Positions 48,005-55,307 of a stretch of DNA of 61,701 nt are shown here, one piece after another; position 1 is the first letter of the stretch; every line of letters begins with the position of its first letter. The notes under the pieces were generated by a model that ran no database searches, was not told the DNA's origin, and saw only the letters and a list, made by a program, of their open reading frames with translations. This DNA is from Desulfobacterales bacterium. Lineage in GTDB: Bacteria > Desulfobacterota > Desulfobacteria > Desulfobacterales > SURF-7. Both the position numbers and the translations under genes were made by a program. The stretch lies in assembly GCA_018693105.1 (NCBI GenBank), contig JABHLN010000006.1:1-61701 (forward strand). Direction: 5' to 3'.

Positions 48005-49255
48005 TTAATACTCAAAGGCCAGTTTAACAAACAACTCATTTGAATTATCGTCAGCAGTGCTTCCTGCAGCTTTTTCAAACAGGCTTCTTCGATATTCTGC
48101 CATAAGGCTTGTTACAAAATCATCCTTCTCAAAAAGTGTCCATGTAAACCCCATGCCGTACCTGTTATCCGGATGACCGTCCTGGTCCCCAGAAATATCA
48201 TCATTAAATCCCTCGTACCGGAAAGCGATATCAAGCCATTCCGTGGCTTTATATGCAACTGCCGCAAACCATGCAGATTCTTTGTTTTCAATGGCATTCA
48301 TTGAGTTCTTTTCTCTTTGGACAGCCCCGATATATTCTATATCCATAACCAGTTTGCCTTTCTCATAATTTACCATACCACCTAGGGTATTATTTCGCTG
48401 GTCACCACCGGGTTCTGAATTATAAAAAACAGCCATGGTCATGCAGTTTAAAGGTTTTGCAGTTATGTTTGCAATAAATGATGAAACATCATCAGTCTCA
48501 CTATAGGACATATTCATACCCCCTGCCCGCCACGCTGCAGGAACACCTGATGAGTCGATATATGTCCTGTCAAGCTCATAAGCGCCTTCAAGCATCCTGG
48601 ACATAAGCGCTTCGCCTTTATAAAAAGTTATGGAAAAATCCAGATCGTGGCTATCTGCCGCATAACCCATTGTAACACCTGTTTCAGCTATTTCATAAAG
48701 TTCCTGTGTTATGGGATCATTAATCAAATTGTTCTGAAAACATCCAAAAGGCTGCCCTCTCTTACCGCCTGTAAAATAAAAAGGGATCCCTTCTTTTTGA
48801 ATACTAACAATTGCCTCATCCCAGAAAACCCGGTCATTATCATCAAGATCTTCACCCTTTAATACAAGGTTTCCGGTAACAAACTCATGGAAACCGATTT
48901 CAACACCCAGTTCCACGGTACCGATATTCATATTTGAAGTTGAATTATTTACCAGGTTACTACCTGTATCACCGTCATCAGCATAACTGAAATCCAGCTC
49001 AATGCCCCCGGTAACATTAACCCTATTTGCCCAGAAATAAACTCCGCCTTCAGAAACGACCTGACCGCTTTCAGACTTTATATTTTTGATCTTTTCATTC
49101 TTTTCTATAAGCTTTGCCTCAAGCATGCTTACCCTCTCCTTTAATACAACAAGCTCTTTGAGTATAGCTTCGCTGGAAAGATTCCCGCATAAACCATCGG
49201 ATGCTGATGCTACTATGATTACTAAAACAAAAACAAACATAGACCTGTTAAACAT
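48005..49255 (-). CDS. LbtU-like outer-membrane porin
   Basis: Signal peptide, coiled coil, PFG.F....I.DP.T motif, terminal aromatic (LAFEY); start MFNRS after GGGGGC. Confidence 0.8.
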   Translation of the reverse strand: MFNRSMFVFVLVIIVASASDGLCGNLSSEAILKELVVLKERVSMLEAKLIEKNEKIKNIKSESGQVVSEGGVYFWANRVNVTGGIELDFSYADDGDTGSNLVNNSTSNMNIGTVELGVEIGFHEFVTGNLVLKGEDLDDNDRVFWDEAIVSIQKEGIPFYFTGGKRGQPFGCFQNNLINDPITQELYEIAETGVTMGYAADSHDLDFSITFYKGEALMSRMLEGAYELDRTYIDSSGVPAAWRAGGMNMSYSETDDVSSFIANITAKPLNCMTMAVFYNSEPGGDQRNNTLGGMVNYEKGKLVMDIEYIGAVQREKNSMNAIENKESAWFAAVAYKATEWLDIAFRYEGFNDDISGDQDGHPDNRYGMGFTWTLFEKDDFVTSLMAEYRRSLFEKAAGSTADDNSNELFVKLAFEY

Positions 49256-49271: not shown

Positions 49272-49420
49272 AATGATATTTCAAAAAATAACATATGGCT
49301 AAATAAAATTCTTTATATACAAGACATATCGGTTGGTCATAAGTGAAGGCATATATCTAGTATGTCTAACTTCTAACCAATCCCTATAACACAGTAGATG
49401 GAGATTTTTACAACGCCATC
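49272..49420 (+). mobile_element. MITE-A copy 8 (diverged); overlaps DUF4198 stop codon
   Basis: Collinear core; ends AGATGGAGATTTTTACAACGCCATC. Confidence 0.85.
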
Positions 49421-50198
49421 ACTTCTGCTGCCATTCCACAAACTCCACCCATATCACAGCTCCCAGCTCAACATCTTTATCTTCACCCTTATATTTCATC
49501 TTTTTATCGGAACCGTTGAGTGCCGCAAAACCCCACCAACCTGACTTTGAAACAGCATAAGTAAAAACACCATTCATATCGGCTTTAACTGTCTGGGTAA
49601 CCATATAGTCAGTAGGAGCCATAGCTTTTCCATCCTGGTTAAAATATTCTACTTCAACAATAGAACCCGGCACCGGTTTACCATCAAGCATAACAACACC
49701 CTGAAATACATTTCCTGCGTAAAGACCGAATGGTCTTGTCAGAGGAACAATTTCTGTTTTCAAACCCAGTGGCTCATCCCATCCGTCTTCATATCCAAAT
49801 GAGGCAATTACAGTTTTTGTATAATGAATAATAAAACAATCTTCCGCCGGTTCCCAATATGGTTCAGGTTCCATAAAGAAGGCATAAACACCCGGTCGTT
49901 TAACCTTGTAATTTATAGTCCATGCGGTATTTTCAAACACCTTCGTCTCTTTCAATGCCCCAAGAAGATTTTGGACTTTCCCATCGCTTACAACCGAAAA
50001 TTTAGCCGGCTTAACCATGATCATGCCGATACCTTCAAAAGGATGAGAAAAAGAAATATTTAGAGAAACCTTTTGTTTATCTCCCTGCATAACCATACTA
50101 TCAGATGGAACAAGCATGCCGAAATGAGCAAGTGCATTACCTGTCATCATTAATAAAAAAACTCCTGCCGTAAATAAAACTTTTGTTTTTTTTCTCAT
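49419..50198 (-). CDS. DUF4198 periplasmic Co/Ni-uptake protein (NikK/NikM-associated)
   Basis: ALA|HF signal cleavage leaving an N-terminal His; FSHPFEG, PYWEPAED, EIVPLTRPFGL, GWWGFAAL. Confidence 0.88.
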   Translation of the reverse strand: MRKKTKVLFTAGVFLLMMTGNALAHFGMLVPSDSMVMQGDKQKVSLNISFSHPFEGIGMIMVKPAKFSVVSDGKVQNLLGALKETKVFENTAWTINYKVKRPGVYAFFMEPEPYWEPAEDCFIIHYTKTVIASFGYEDGWDEPLGLKTEIVPLTRPFGLYAGNVFQGVVMLDGKPVPGSIVEVEYFNQDGKAMAPTDYMVTQTVKADMNGVFTYAVSKSGWWGFAALNGSDKKMKYKGEDKDVELGAVIWVEFVEWQQK

Positions 50199-50214
50199 TT
50201 TCATCTCCTTATAT

Positions 50215-50356
50215 TAATAAATATAACTGATGGTTAAGTATAAATCTTCATATATTAGGCATATTGGTTAATTAGTGAAGAAGACATACATGTAGTATGT
50301 CGAATTTCTGATAAACGAATATAACGCAGTATATGGAGACTTTTTACGACACCATC
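50215..50356 (+). mobile_element. MITE-A copy 9 (left end eroded)
   Basis: TATAACTGATGGTTAAGTA...GGAGACTTTTTACGACACCATC. Confidence 0.87.
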
Positions 50357-50363
50357 TAAAAAT

Positions 50364-50467
50364 AAAAAAAGCCGCAAAGGTAATACAGGTATCCGATACC
50401 TGAAACCGCCTTCATGGCTTGATGATTATCTTGTAATATGACCGGCTCTTCCGACTTCAATCGGAAT
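50364..50467 (-). ncRNA. Candidate cis-regulatory leader, copy 1 (UGAAG hairpin plus AGCCAYGAAGG terminator hairpin)
   Basis: TTCCGA-TTGAAG-TCGGAA, 29 nt, AGCCATGAAGG..CCTTTGCGGCT + T-tract; upstream of DUF4198. Confidence 0.55.
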
Positions 50468-50597
50468 TTTTCATCAATCTTGTCCGGTTTTTTTCAGGTA
50501 AATATTATTCCCGTACCGAAGAGTATAATTTTACCTTGATTCAAAGATGCAAAACGATAGTCAACTGATAAAGAATTTTTCCATAATTTATATTATT

Positions 50598-50749
50598 TAT
50601 ATACTCGTAAAAAGCACAACAGATTGCTAAGTAAAAATCTTCATATACAAGGCATAATGTTTGGTCAGTCGTGAAGGCATACATGTAGTATGTCAAACGT
50701 CTGGCCAAACATTATAACGCAGTAGATGGTGACTTTTTACGACGCAATC
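50598..50749 (+). mobile_element. MITE-A copy 10 (152 bp)
   Basis: ACTCGTAAAAAG...GACTTTTTACGACGCAATC; flanks ATTATT/ACTATT (5 of 6 match). Confidence 0.9.
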
Positions 50750-50750
50750 A

Positions 50751-51368
50751 CTATTTTTCTTTGCTTTTAAAATAAAGAGCAATCCCAACAAGTCCTAATA
50801 TGTAGCCAAAACCACCCATTATATCGGTAAAATCGGGCCCCTTTTCTTCCCGGATTTTTGCAATAGTCCTTGAAACAGGCTTCAACCTTGAATCAACAAC
50901 CTCTTCCACAACCTTTCTTATCTGTTCAATATCAACTGAAACTTTAGTGGATGCTACCTTTACGTCTTCTTCTTCTTTATTAATGAGAGTCGATGTTAAA
51001 GTAGCGTTATCCTCCTGAAGTTCATCTGCTTTTAATAGATATTCAGCTTTATGTCCCATACTGGATTCCATAACAATTCGAAGATCTGATTTGACCGGAA
51101 TCTTGAACGAAAATGCACCTTTTCTATTTGTTACCCCTTCCAATAATTTTTTGCCTGACATGTCAAAAACTTCAACATGCCCTCCAATTACTTTCTTTTT
51201 TCCACTGAAATAACTGTCAACATAAACGGTATCACCTTCACCCCATGCAAAAAGATAAACCTTGTGAGCATAAACCGATGAGGTAAAACTTAATAAGAAG
51301 AATAAGATTGTCATGGTTAAAAAAAATCGACCGAGTAAGATAAACGAAAAATATTTTTTCCCCTTCAT
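50751..51368 (-). CDS. CbiL/NikL-like Co/Ni transport component
   Basis: VYA|HKV N-terminal His, MGH motif, C-terminal TM DIMGGFGYILGL. Confidence 0.78.
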   Translation of the reverse strand: MKGKKYFSFILLGRFFLTMTILFFLLSFTSSVYAHKVYLFAWGEGDTVYVDSYFSGKKKVIGGHVEVFDMSGKKLLEGVTNRKGAFSFKIPVKSDLRIVMESSMGHKAEYLLKADELQEDNATLTSTLINKEEEDVKVASTKVSVDIEQIRKVVEEVVDSRLKPVSRTIAKIREEKGPDFTDIMGGFGYILGLVGIALYFKSKEK

Positions 51369-51388
51369 AATATATTCCTCATCATGTC

Positions 51389-51489
51389 AAAAAAAAAGCC
51401 ACAAACTTTGAGGGACTTTTAATTCCATCTCAAACCTTCGTGGCTGTTTTAATAATTTAAAATTTTTTGCCTATCGGGCTTCATACCCG
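51389..51489 (-). ncRNA. Candidate cis-regulatory leader, copy 2
   Basis: CGGG-TATGAAG-CCCG, 29 nt, AGCCACGAAGG..TTTGTGGCT + T-tract, ending about 20 nt before the ATG. Confidence 0.55.
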
Positions 51490-51497
51490 TTAAAAAA

Positions 51498-51526
51498 AAA
51501 CTATTATAATCAATCAATTTTGTCAA
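51498..51526 (-). promoter_or_regulatory. Sigma70-like promoter of the CbiL-like gene
   Basis: TTGACA-17 nt-TAGTTT immediately 5' of leader copy 2. Confidence 0.55.
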
Positions 51527-51553
51527 TATCTATTTTCTTAAACACTCACCTTT

Positions 51554-51711
51554 GATTAACTCGTAAAAAGTCAACTCGGGATGGCAAAGTAAAAAGTTCA
51601 AGATCAGGGCGGCGCAAAATTCGAGGAATGAGGTGTACTTAAAGTACGACGCAGTGATCCCGCCATGGCGGGACAGCGTAACGCAGACATTGAACTTTTT
51701 ACGAAGCCATC
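51554..51711 (+). mobile_element. MITE-A sister-subfamily copy (158 bp) with 16-bp palindrome
   Basis: Same doubled left end and CTTTTTACGAAGCCATC right end, different core; flanks ACCTTT/ACCTTA. Confidence 0.85.
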
Positions 51712-51828
51712 ACCTTAATACCGGTACTTTTATATATCAGGCCTTCAACTCCTAACTTTAAAATGTGTCGCTACAATCTTTTATGGTTTCAGAAATTTTA
51801 TTATAAATATCCATTTCTTGATTTATCC

Positions 51829-51859: not shown

Positions 51860-51959
51860 CTTTTGGTCAGAATTCCGGTGAAATATCGGATTTATTTGAA
51901 TATGGGTGATTTCTTCAGGTCTCTAATTGAGACATGAAATATTGGAGTTACATTTAATA

Positions 51960-52502
51960 ATGTTACTGAATAAGCTCCTTGAGCATAAAAAAAAAGAGAT
52001 TGTTAAAAAATGGTTTGAAATAATTGCTTCAACCTATCCTAACGATACTGCCGGATTTTTAAAAAAGGAAAAAGACAGTTTTGCAAATCCGGTTGGAAGC
52101 ACAAACATACAGGGCCTTGGTGCTGTTCTTGATGAATTAATCAACGGTCCTGACCGGGAAACAATTACATCTTTTCTTGATCCCATTATCAGGATAAGAG
52201 CTGTTCAGAAATTCACTCCTTCAGAAGCTGTCTCGTTTACAATAAGTTTAAAGAAAATTATACGAGACACTCTTGCCAGGGAAATCGTTGAACAAAACCT
52301 GGAAAAAGACATACTTGAATTTGAATCAAAAATTGACGATCTTTGTCTGATCGCTTTTGACATATTCATGGGGTGCCGGGAACAGATATATAAATACAAG
52401 GCAAACCATGTAAAAGATAGAACCCTTAAATTATTGCAGAAGGCGGATTTGTTGTGTGAAGTTCCGGATATGGACTCGGATATCACACCGCGTAATTTTT
52501 AA
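51960..52502 (+). CDS. dsrT: DsrT (RsbRD N-terminal domain)
   Basis: FANPVG, IIRIRAVQ.FTPSEAV, AFDIFMGCREQIY; directly before dsrM. Confidence 0.92.
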   Translation: MLLNKLLEHKKKEIVKKWFEIIASTYPNDTAGFLKKEKDSFANPVGSTNIQGLGAVLDELINGPDRETITSFLDPIIRIRAVQKFTPSEAVSFTISLKKIIRDTLAREIVEQNLEKDILEFESKIDDLCLIAFDIFMGCREQIYKYKANHVKDRTLKLLQKADLLCEVPDMDSDITPRNF

Positions 52503-52623: not shown

Positions 52624-53673
52624 ATGAATGGAAATTATATATTTTCCCTCATAACTGTTGTTGTCCTCGGCTTACTTGCCTTTTTTGGTACGACAGTCTT
52701 CGGGCTTCAATACTTATTCGGGGTTATTGTACCCTATGCATGCGTCATATGGTTTGTTTTCGGGATTTTAAAACGTATGCTTGGTTGGGCAAACTCTCCT
52801 GTTCCATTTCGCATAACGACAACATGCGGCCAGCAAAAATCCCTGCCATGGATCAAGCAAAACAGGATTGACAACCCTTCCACAGGTATCGAGACAATAA
52901 TCAGAATGATCCTGGAGATCGTACTCTTTCGCTCATTATTTAGAAATACAAAAAGCGATATCACGGCATCAGGAAAAGTTACTTATATTTGGGAAAAGTG
53001 GCTTTGGGTTGGCGCCCTTGCTTTTCACTACTCCTTTCTGGTTGTAATCGTAAGGCATATGCGTTTTTTTACCGACCCTGTTCCATACCTGATAAGCATG
53101 TTGGAATACTTCGACAGTCTATTTAAGATTGAGTTTGTCGGTGAGGTTGTGGGTACATCCCTGCAGATCGGTTTACCGGGATTTTTTATATCCGGCCTGG
53201 TTCTTCTTGCAGCAATACTTTTTTTGTTCTCTAGAAGAGTCCTTATCTCACAGGTCAGGTACATTTCACTGCCCGCTGATTTTTTCCCGCTTTTCCTGTT
53301 AATGGGTATCGCCGGTACAGGTATATTTATGAGATATTTTTCAAAGGTTGATATCATAAGTATAAAAGAACTCACCATGGGACTGGCTACTTTTTGTATA
53401 CCCGATGGTGCTGTTTTAGCAGGTTTGAGTTCGGTTTTTTATATTCACCTGTTCCTTGTTTGTATTTTGCTGGCTTATTTCCCTTTCAGCAAGCTTATGC
53501 ACATGGGTGGAGTCTTTTTAAGCCCCACAAGAAACCTCCCAAACAACAGCCGTGCACGTAGACACATTAATCCATGGAATTATCCTGTAAAAGTTCATAC
53601 ATATGATGAGTATGAAGATGAATTCAGGGAGAAAATGATAGAAGCTGGGCTTCCAGTTGAAAAGGAGTCATAA
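52624..53673 (+). CDS. dsrM: DsrM cytochrome b subunit
   Basis: PFRITTTCGQQ, FHY..RHMR, YFPFSKLMH, SPTRN. Confidence 0.97.
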   Translation: MNGNYIFSLITVVVLGLLAFFGTTVFGLQYLFGVIVPYACVIWFVFGILKRMLGWANSPVPFRITTTCGQQKSLPWIKQNRIDNPSTGIETIIRMILEIVLFRSLFRNTKSDITASGKVTYIWEKWLWVGALAFHYSFLVVIVRHMRFFTDPVPYLISMLEYFDSLFKIEFVGEVVGTSLQIGLPGFFISGLVLLAAILFLFSRRVLISQVRYISLPADFFPLFLLMGIAGTGIFMRYFSKVDIISIKELTMGLATFCIPDGAVLAGLSSVFYIHLFLVCILLAYFPFSKLMHMGGVFLSPTRNLPNNSRARRHINPWNYPVKVHTYDEYEDEFREKMIEAGLPVEKES

Positions 53674-55307
53674 TGGTAGATGTTCCAAAACCCGAAGAAT
53701 TAATAAAAGTTGATAATAAGCCTCCGGCAAAAGGATGGATGGATGTTCCACCTGATATCTCTGCCGGGAAATACCCGTACCCTGCGCAACCCAAATCATT
53801 GAAATACCTCGATCTTCCCAATCCAAGGGACTGGTCTCCTCTTGATGACGACTGGCAGCTGCCGGAAAACTGGAAAGAGATTGTACATGAGGGCTTGAAA
53901 GAACGTCTTGATAAATACAGATCGTTAAAAGTCTTCATGGATACCTGTGTAAGATGCGGCGCATGTGCTGACAAATGCCACTTCTATATAGGTTCCGGTG
54001 ATCCTAAAAACATGCCGGTACTAAGAGCCGAACTATTAAGATCAATTTACAGAAATGATTTTACTGCAGCCGGGAAAATAATGAGTTTATTCCCGGGCGG
54101 CAAACGACTTGCAGGTGCACGGACTCTTACAAAAGACATAATCAAGGAATGGTTTTCCTATTTTTATCAATGTTCTGAATGCCGCAGATGTTCTGTGTTC
54201 TGTCCTTACGGCATCGATACTGCGGAAATCACTATGATGGGAAGAGAGCTTCTCAATCTTCTCGGGATAAATATCCACTGGATCAAGGATCCGGTATCCA
54301 ACTGCTTCAGAACAGGAAACCATCTTGGAATTCAGCCGCAGAACTTCAAGGAAATAGTTGAATTCTTCTGCGAAGATATTGAAGAGATAACAGGGGTTAC
54401 GATCAATCCATCCTTTAACAGGAAGGGGGCTGAAATACTCTTTATCACCCCGTCCGGAGACGCATTTGCAGATCCGGGAACATATACATTCATGGGTTAC
54501 CTGCTTCTTTTCGAACACATCGGGCTTGATTACACATTCAGTACATATGCATCCGAAGGCGGAAACTTCGGTCTGTTTACATCAGCCGAAATGATGAAAC
54601 GCTTGAATTCAAAGATGTATGCAGAAGCCAGCAGACTTGGTGTAAAATGGATACTGGGTGGAGAGTGCGGTCATATGTGGCGGGTCATTAATCAGTATAT
54701 GGATACAATGAACGGACCCGCAGATTTTCTTGAAATGCCGGTTTCACCGATTACCGGGACAAAATTTGAAAATGCGGCTTCAACAAAAATGGTTCATATT
54801 GCTGAATTTACAGCTGATCTTATAAGACATAATAAGCTTAAGCTTGATCCGAGCAGAAATGATCACCTGGTTGTTACCTATCACGACTCGTGCAACCCGG
54901 CTAGGGCTATGGGGCTGTTTGAAGAGCCTCGATACGTTATAAATAATGTATGCAACAACTTTTATGAAATGCCTGAAAGCACTATCAAAGAAAACACATT
55001 CTGCTGCGGAAGCGGATCAGGTTTGAACACTGAAGAAATTATGGAAACCAGACTGCAAGGCGGTCTGCCTAGAGCAAATGCCGTAAAACATGTTCACGAC
55101 AAAAACGGAGTCAACATGCTTTCCTGCGTTTGTGCCATTGACAGGGCTGTTTTCCCTCCCCTTATGGATTACTGGGTTCCGGGTGTTGATGTTACCGGAG
55201 TTCATGAACTCGTTGGTAACGCTCTTGTAATGGAAGGTGAAATTGAGAGAACAACCAACTTGCGATTCGAACCCTTAGGAGATACGGAGGGTGATTCTGA
55301 TGAATGA
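53673..55307 (+). CDS. dsrK: DsrK Fe-S/CCG catalytic subunit
   Basis: CVRCGACADKC, CSECRRCSVFCP, GECGH, HDSC, CCG. Confidence 0.97.
   Translation: MVDVPKPEELIKVDNKPPAKGWMDVPPDISAGKYPYPAQPKSLKYLDLPNPRDWSPLDDDWQLPENWKEIVHEGLKERLDKYRSLKVFMDTCVRCGACADKCHFYIGSGDPKNMPVLRAELLRSIYRNDFTAAGKIMSLFPGGKRLAGARTLTKDIIKEWFSYFYQCSECRRCSVFCPYGIDTAEITMMGRELLNLLGINIHWIKDPVSNCFRTGNHLGIQPQNFKEIVEFFCEDIEEITGVTINPSFNRKGAEILFITPSGDAFADPGTYTFMGYLLLFEHIGLDYTFSTYASEGGNFGLFTSAEMMKRLNSKMYAEASRLGVKWILGGECGHMWRVINQYMDTMNGPADFLEMPVSPITGTKFENAASTKMVHIAEFTADLIRHNKLKLDPSRNDHLVVTYHDSCNPARAMGLFEEPRYVINNVCNNFYEMPESTIKENTFCCGSGSGLNTEEIMETRLQGGLPRANAVKHVHDKNGVNMLSCVCAIDRAVFPPLMDYWVPGVDVTGVHELVGNALVMEGEIERTTNLRFEPLGDTEGDSDE

Follow-up and report, generated by a model that had tools for sequence, protein, structure and literature searches.

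The window analysed here, a 61,701-nt stretch (positions 1 to 61,701 of contig JABHLN010000006.1, assembly GCA_018693105.1) of a Desulfobacterales bacterium, raises the question of how the transcription of nickel uptake genes is controlled in this group. Its minus strand carries two copies of one leader architecture, the first before nikL (copy 2) and the second before nikK, a gene of the DUF4198 type (copy 1). The initial annotation had described in both places a hairpin with UGAAG at its loop, a 29-nt spacer and a long hairpin followed by a U-tract, and both sequence and folding bore out this two-hairpin layout. Our analysis points, with moderate confidence, to each copy being a hairpin-versus-terminator attenuator of a widespread family, in which a trans-acting factor would hold a mini-hairpin (M) and permit read-through when nickel (or cobalt) is scarce.

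From 5' to 3', copy 2 consists of a promoter-like site, the upstream hairpin (H1), a spacer, the terminator, its U-tract, a ribosome-binding site and the ATG at 51368 (Table 1). The spacer between H1 and the terminator measures 29 nt in both copies and is A/U-rich in copy 2. The H1 stems of the two copies are unlike in sequence and each is base-paired; the terminators have the base AGCCAYGAAGG / UUUGYGGCU in common, and their upper stems are unrelated. Folding of copy 2 yielded -32.2 kcal/mol (z -3.74), which none of 200 shuffled sequences reached, and folding of copy 1 yielded -32.7 kcal/mol (z -2.84), with 2/200 shuffles folding as well. M sits inside the 5' arm of the terminator, so that in copy 2 the two structures are mutually exclusive. 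A TTGACA promoter had been proposed for copy 2. A promoter-like site is indeed present, but the scanner pairs its perfect TATAAT (51503-51508) with TAGATA (51527-51532), and TTGACA (51521-51526) is only 12 nt away from TATAAT. The promoter scan found no promoter-like site just upstream of copy 1 on the minus strand, and copy 1 may therefore be an internal attenuator between nikL and nikK.

Table 1. Coordinates of the leader elements and adjoining features, given as positions in the window.
Feature	Position	Strand	Description	Basis
Promoter-like site, copy 2	51503..51532	-	TAGATA, 18-nt spacer, TATAAT	10/12 consensus matches
Hairpin H1, copy 2	51475..51489	-	5-bp stem, AUGAA loop, U.G closing pair	Sequence and folding
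Mini-hairpin M, copy 2	51433..51445	-	AGCC[ACGAA]GGUU, within terminator 5' arm	Sequence and family-wide pairing (pair 7:17 in 87/87)
Intrinsic terminator, copy 2	51389..51445	-	Stem 51397-51445, U-tract to 51389	Folding, R1 (47.9 bits), family covariation
nikL	50751..51368	-	NikL-family nickel/cobalt energy-coupling factor (ECF) transporter subunit, 205 aa	NF058648, 171 bits (cut-off 100)
Hairpin H1, copy 1	50449..50466	-	7-bp stem, UGAA loop, U.G closing pair	Sequence and folding
Mini-hairpin M, copy 1	50407..50419	-	AGCC[AUGAA]GGCG, within terminator 5' arm	Sequence and family-wide pairing
Intrinsic terminator, copy 1	50364..50419	-	Stem 50370-50419, U-tract to 50364	Folding, R1 (46.8 bits), family covariation
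Dispersed hairpin repeat (family D1)	50215..50356		142 nt, like a miniature inverted-repeat transposable element; between copy-1 terminator and nikK ribosome-binding site	About 407 places in the 3.24-Mb genome (blastn)
nikK	49419..50204	-	nikK-type DUF4198 periplasmic protein, 261 aa	PF10670, E 1.2e-59
LbtU-family porin gene	48005..49255	-	Siderophore-type porin, next same-strand gene	NF033652, 105.5 bits (cut-off 90)

Taken alone, the AGCCAYGAAGG-type 11-mer is not significant, with 2 matches in the window and 1.41 expected. The two-armed pattern, in turn, has exactly two matches in the 3.24-Mb genome, both of them the present copies, and its reversed control has none. A covariance model (R1), built from 101 pattern-derived sequences, comprising only the 12 basal pairs and giving rough E-values, also found these two copies and no others in the genome; it was built in part from the window copies, and both of them match the independent pattern set as well. 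A DNA-uptake sequence or a dispersed repeat was ruled out as the source of the conserved arm, as the genome holds only two copies.

The leader had also been thought, by eye, not to fit the consensus of the NiCo or the cobalamin riboswitch. This was upheld by cmscan against Rfam 15, which gave no match at gathering score over the whole window and, at E<=10 between 49000 and 52500, five chance-level matches (snoRNA, U6atac and rne5 models), none on the leaders. The NiCo model (RF02683) matched the leaders neither at E<=10 in that interval nor at gathering score in the window, and the cobalamin model (RF00174) had no match in the window. Tool failure does not account for this, because cmscan detected a genuine NiCo element in a related locus (L103) and genuine cobalamin elements in three others (L009, L010 and L038). 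No description of the leader was found in the searchable literature (abstracts and some article text), and supplementary lists of candidate motifs could still hold one. The leader family is thus absent from Rfam and from the searchable literature, and its motif, regulon and putative effector are new.

Scanning public genomes with the pattern, one genome for each prokaryote species, recovered at least 120 loci, spanning Desulfobacterales, Nitrospirae, Clostridia, Negativicutes and NC10. Desulfotruncus and Peptococcaceae are also represented among the matches listed, as are the cultured carriers Sporomusa ovata DSM 2662, Clostridium algoriphilum DSM 16153, Desulfobacter latus AcRS2 and Desulfotruncus arcticus DSM 17038. 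Among the 123 non-redundant matches listed, the basal stem is closed in 121 and at least 8 T occur within the next 12 nt in 110; about a dozen of the 123 look like chance. The pattern was present in 5 of 61 related genomes, including the window's own (reversed control, one match), and was not found in 17 other genomes of the window's own family. At E<=0.01, R1 identified the leader in 79 of the 151 genomes sampled from the order, a single genome having up to nine sites; it also matched 8/151 sampled Clostridia. These counts come from a seed set gathered by a fixed pattern and from a model built on it, and the related genomes are not independent of each other.

Comparison across the family shows covariation in the basal helix of the terminator. 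Model-derived hits, which do not depend on the search pattern, reveal the variable positions, and covariation was assessed on an independent MAFFT alignment of 87 sequences. In this alignment 94.8% of the cells of the basal helix are paired and six of its 12 pairs change on both sides (52 cells), a result reached by 0/500 shuffles, and slid registers of the same helix attain at most 55.7% pairing. Within the 5' arm, position 5 and its terminator partner covary (CG 51, UG 16, GC 10, UA 5). The GAAGG of the 5' arm is invariant and its partners alternate between C and U; because these letters stay fixed as their partners switch, the 5' arm appears to be under constraint beyond pairing, which suggests that it carries a second function.

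A candidate for this function is M, the alternative fold of the first 12-13 nt of the terminator 5' arm, with the form (A)GCC[ANGAA]GGY(U). Its cells are paired in 89.7% of cases in the 87 sequences, 12 cells being changed on both sides, and one sequence displays a double change of C3:G11 to U:A. The pair G2:Y12 is formed in 87/87 sequences (GC 56, GU 23, AU 8), Y12 being unpaired with its terminator partner in 23 of them, and position 12 is a pyrimidine in 175/178 leaders. Upstream, 109 of 179 leaders have an H1 whose stem reaches at least 5 bp and whose loop is N1-2GAA, compared with a mean of 7.65 and a maximum of 16 in shuffled sequences and with 13/174 in the 110 nt downstream. The closing pair of H1 is C-G in 79/109 cases, the U.G closure of the window copies belonging to a minority type (8/109), and its commonest stem, GCC/GGC, is the same as that of M. 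The loops found most often are AGAA (25), AUGAA (20), AAGAA (19), UGAA (15) and ACGAA (9), and the linker between H1 and M is variable, with a median of 40 nt. H1 and M, as read from their sequences, thus follow one consensus, in which a variable stem, closed by C-G, carries an (A)NGAA loop. The earlier observation that YGAAG is repeated in both hairpins was in this way confirmed and refined, the second instance being M in the terminator 5' arm. An extra GAA-loop hairpin lies inside the terminator in 39/179 leaders, compared with 2.15 in shuffles. The window copies carry all features of the family, that is, the AGCC-N-N-GAAGG basal stem with its U-tract, M, an H1 of the kind that lies about 30-50 nt ahead of the terminator and a metal-import gene downstream.

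Two variants of this architecture were observed. In locus L173 (G161:C1:4580145-4582207), three terminator units about 80 nt apart stand in tandem behind a single promoter and a single H1. In five loci of Desulfobacteraceae (L099, L104, L105, L126 and L135), the upstream element is a full second terminator-like hairpin with the base GGCCAUGAAGGC and a perfectly complementary 3' arm, and this group precedes a conserved gene for a 307-aa protein whose family was not recognised.

The same comparative data bear on the idea that the inverted repeat is a DNA operator, with its two half-sites bound by a NikR-like repressor. The operator reported for delta-proteobacteria in the accessible text of PMC545781 (GTGTTAC-N13/14-GTAACAC) is likewise an inverted repeat with a spacer. 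In the leader, though, the arms lie at freely varying distances from each other (the element as a whole being 32-62 nt long), the intervening sequence always pairs and is followed by a U-tract, and the compensatory changes are of the RNA type, G.U pairs included. NikR_C was not found in the window's genome, which is 91.8% complete, and no NikR-type site lies near the leaders, the two matches elsewhere in the window (at most 3 mismatches, N13 only) comparing with 1.38 expected. We therefore regard an operator as barely tenable.

With regard to the genes under the leader, downstream open reading frames (ORFs) were called by a simple script and their Pfam families tallied, so that the counts refer to families and not to curated genes. 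The 110 first ORFs behind the listed pattern matches (13/123 had none) include Plug (TonB receptor, 13), CbiM (12), Peripla_BP_2 (11), FmdE (7), methyltransferases (7), SBP_bac_5 (6), DUF4198 (5), DUF3842 (3) and Phenol_MetA_deg (3), and 7 of the 12 CbiM ORFs also contain PDGLE, the fused NikMN form. Among the second and third genes (121 ORFs), FecCD (11), the ATPase of ATP-binding cassette (ABC) transporters (9), ExbB (8), CbiQ (8) and ExbD (6) were encountered. Model-derived hits of the order (62 ORFs; 11/73 had none) gave a similar list, with Plug 12, Peripla_BP_2 9, DUF3450 4, DUF3842 4, FmdE 3 and DUF4198 2. The leader lies at a median distance of about 30 nt from the ORF, and the downstream genes are mostly importers, i.e., TonB receptors, NikMN/CbiM, BtuF-like and NikA-like binding proteins, DUF4198 and FmdE. 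Metal-import families thus dominate the first downstream genes, and the leader is linked to gene function instead of occurring irrespective of it. In the window itself, the assignment of one gene to DUF4198 stood, and the gene called CbiL-like proved to encode a NikL-family Ni/Co ECF subunit (NF058648); nikK is the name given to the DUF4198-type partner described with nikL in delta-proteobacteria (PMC545781, accessible text). The proposal of the initial annotation that a new transcription attenuator, be it a riboswitch or a site for an antiterminator protein, precedes Co/Ni uptake genes is supported, at the level of sequence comparison, by two covarying folds, by the family and by this gene association. 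We infer nickel (or cobalt) as the probable signal only from the NikMN, NikL, NikK and NikA members. B12 was judged unlikely as the signal, since separate cobalamin riboswitches adjoin some leader-controlled operons; they were found near leaders in 3/17 loci scanned, on separate transcription units.

The gene association also bears on the possibility that these hairpins are unregulated, either as strong terminators or insulators or as the 3' ends of small RNAs, their base being conserved by descent or by horizontal spread with uptake clusters. Many copies are near-perfect palindromes with A-run and U-run flanks that score on both strands, as bidirectional terminators would. That the pattern was not found in any of the 17 other genomes from the window's own family would agree with the leader having been acquired along with the cluster, and Hfq-type small RNAs, too, are laid out as promoter, 5' hairpin, A/U spacer and terminator. 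Nevertheless, a constitutive terminator between promoter and ribosome-binding site, at the short distance to the ORF noted above, would silence the importers. The 5'-arm sequence is moreover conserved beyond the needs of pairing, enrichment of the same-loop H1 is restricted to the upstream side, and the association with one functional gene class holds across phyla. This explanation appears improbable to us.

The preferred reading, an attenuator released by a trans-acting factor, is a mechanism of a known kind, in which a terminator competes with an antiterminator hairpin. By default, the RNA would fold into the strong intrinsic terminator and transcription would stop before the uptake gene. 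Alternatively, the first 12-13 nt of the terminator 5' arm would form the weak M. Most terminators of the family are stable by themselves (-20 to -33 kcal/mol) and M has only 3-4 pairs; because of this, the RNA alone should terminate and something must hold M. A simple RNA-only antiterminator was rejected, as inspection by eye found no upstream segment complementary to the terminator arms beyond 5-7 weak pairs. The trans-acting factor, more likely a protein than a small ligand, would recognise the GAA loops; in its active state, during a shortage of nickel (or cobalt), it would bind both H1 and M, keeping M in place and thereby preventing the 3' arm from pairing. Read-through would then allow transcription of nikL, nikK and the porin gene, copy 2 gating entry from the promoter and copy 1 acting as a second checkpoint between nikL and nikK. 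We infer the bound-equals-ON direction, the nickel signal and the nature of the factor from sequence comparison. Given that importers need the factor at times of metal shortage, direct sensing of Ni2+ is less favoured than a starvation metabolite or a protein that acts while free of metal.

A true riboswitch would dispense with the protein, the RNA itself binding Ni2+/Co2+, a nickel complex or a metabolite of nickel shortage through the GAA loops of M and of H1 or the internal hairpin. The 11-13 nt core is near-identical across Desulfobacterales, Nitrospirae, Clostridia, Negativicutes and NC10, which is typical of direct ligand binding; tandem units such as those of L173, with three terminators behind one H1, are known from riboswitches, and no regulator gene is encoded beside the operons. 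The guanidine-II (mini-ykkC) riboswitch is made up of a pair of small hairpins, which have identical short loops closed by C-G, and a variable linker, and acts at the translational level as a ligand-ON switch. The two like-looped hairpins of the leader and their variable linker recall it, but the loop sequence differs and there is no evidence that the GAA loops pair together. The stability of the terminator alone means that a ligand would be needed for ON and not for OFF, and the imported metal would then turn uptake on, the wrong logic for importers. M, with 3-4 bp and a 5-nt loop, is also small for an aptamer, and a free-standing metal aptamer does not predict that the leader should occur almost only in genomes bearing DUF3842 (see below). 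Direct ligand binding is therefore a serious but unlikely alternative.

Another known reader of paired hairpins is the ANTAR-domain response regulator, as in EutV, NasR and AmiR. As described in the accessible text of PMC3369931 (Ramesh et al. 2012), ANTAR-target leaders resemble the new leader in having two small hairpins with conserved loops, the second overlapping the 5' arm of the terminator and competing with it, in terminating by default and reading through when a dimeric factor is bound, and in that several operons of a genome share the leader. The window's genome encodes one ANTAR protein. According to the same text, though, ANTAR targets have hexanucleotide loops with A1 and G4, whereas the loops here are of 4-5 nt, (A)NGAA, and closed by C-G; in the window, H1 has UGAA and AUGAA, and M has AUGAA and ACGAA. 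The regulon of the new leader is metal import and some of its members are single-hairpin leaders, which further sets it apart. Finally, no ANTAR gene was found in two of the eight Clostridia with the leader (G167 and G264), the base rate being 80/150. Recognition by an ANTAR protein thus seems very improbable.

For the trans-acting factor, the pair of a DUF3842 gene and a CooT-family gene is the only candidate with evidence, in the form of co-occurrence. DUF3842 was found in 120/151 genomes of the order; a comparison of two tables gives 73 of the 79 leader-bearing genomes and 47/72 genomes without the leader. Completeness of the six leader-bearing exceptions is 64-95%, and true leaders are present in at least four. 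DUF3842 is also present in 8/8 leader-bearing Clostridia (53/150 overall), in 15/15 further leader-bearing genomes of several phyla and in 0/14 control genomes. In Desulfobacterales, Nitrospirae, NC10 and Sporomusa, 15 of 17 loci (L201-L215 included) have a CooT-family gene directly after the DUF3842 gene, and the window's genome carries the pair on contig C37 (L200:191-598 and L200:637-828), its CooT-like protein matching PDB 6FAN with E 1.2e-11. In five loci the pair stands directly behind the leader, often as a second copy, and in C. algoriphilum the nikMN leader has DUF3842 as its divergent neighbour. A CooT dimer binds one Ni through Cys2, with a Kd of 9 nM (PMC6006190, accessible text). 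NikR_C, in turn, occurs in only 3/151 genomes of the order (G044, G059 and G088), all three without DUF3842. It is possible, although we put it forward tentatively and with considerable doubt, that the nickel-free DUF3842-CooT pair binds the GAA-loop hairpins and antiterminates the importer regulon, in the manner of an iron regulatory protein (IRP), taking the place of NikR in Desulfobacterales and their relatives.

Several observations weigh against an attenuator released by a trans-acting factor and against the pair as that factor. The sample is biased, with pattern-selected seeds and a model derived from them. M has only 3-4 bp and few independent changes, in related sequences. Furthermore, by the criteria applied here, 50/179 leaders contain M only, with neither an upstream nor an internal GAA-loop hairpin, so that the second hairpin is not obligatory; these include Nitrospirae copies in which, by eye, the promoter lies about 15 nt before AGCC. 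Most of the regulated genes are generic TonB/ABC importers without an assigned substrate. As for the pair, three genomes of 90-95% completeness (G057, G059 and G063) have true leaders and no DUF3842 hit. The predicted model of DUF3842 (mean local confidence, pLDDT, 92.5) has a generic Rossmann-like fold, with a best Foldseek E of 6.8e-4 and a TM score of at most 0.52. Neither candidate resembles an RNA binder in charge, DUF3842 being about neutral and its CooT-like partners acidic, with a median net charge of -5. The presence of DUF3842-CooT under the leader in several genomes may also mean that the co-occurrence reflects a shared nickel regulon and not recognition. A search of DUF3842 against the sequences of solved structures returned nothing below E 0.5, and no function for it follows from the fold search, which gave only generic Rossmann/FtsZ-N-like matches.

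Among systems linked to nickel, the searchable literature, as far as its accessible text goes, describes NikR and similar repressors as controlling nickel import at the DNA level, and the only Ni/Co-linked RNA element that it contains is NiCo, which governs export (PMC11672702). Uptake genes repressed by NikR (nikMNQO, nikKMLQO and TonB-dependent receptors) form the same set as those behind the leader, namely nikM, nikL, nikK, NikA-type and TonB importers (PMC545781, accessible text), but NikR acts on a DNA operator and the conserved signal of the new leader is an RNA hairpin-or-terminator. The NiCo (czcD) riboswitch resembles the leader as an RNA element that is linked to the Ni/Co homeostasis of anaerobes; it differs in preceding exporters and in its four-way-junction aptamer (PMC11672702, accessible text), whereas the new leader precedes importers. 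Both elements were seen together in locus L103, in which a NiCo riboswitch (L103:6513-6602, 53.1 bits) lies just downstream of a nikMN-type operon headed by the leader, and import control and export control by two different RNAs would stand side by side.

Roughly half of the genomes sampled from an order nearly without NikR carry the leader; it also occurs in acetogens and Nitrospirae, and would therefore define a nickel (possibly cobalt) acquisition regulon. The core metabolism of the carriers depends on nickel enzymes, such as carbon monoxide dehydrogenase/acetyl-CoA synthase (CODH/ACS) and hydrogenases. The leader would give a shared functional label to many unassigned TonB, ABC, FmdE, methyltransferase and DUF genes, and it provides a testable handle on the DUF3842-CooT pair, which has so far been unstudied. 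If the circuit of DUF3842 and CooT is real, it would represent the first control of nickel import at the RNA level and the first regulatory role of a CooT-type nickel-binding protein.

Concerning the surroundings of the leaders, the LbtU-type porin gene is probably part of the same uptake cluster. Three genes are divergent from the leader, at 51927-52502 (+) and 52624-55307 (+), and encode an RsbRD_N-domain protein followed by a NarI-like membrane protein and a CCG/4Fe-4S protein (a Hme/Dsr-like pair); no link between them and the leader was seen. The 142-nt repeat at 50215-50356 is not part of the leader family. Imperfect-hairpin repeats of about this length fill the intergenic gaps of the cluster, at 49280-49421, 50215-50356, 50608-50749 and approximately 51552-51713, and one repeat copy has as its first triplet the TGA stop codon of the DUF4198 gene (49419-49421).

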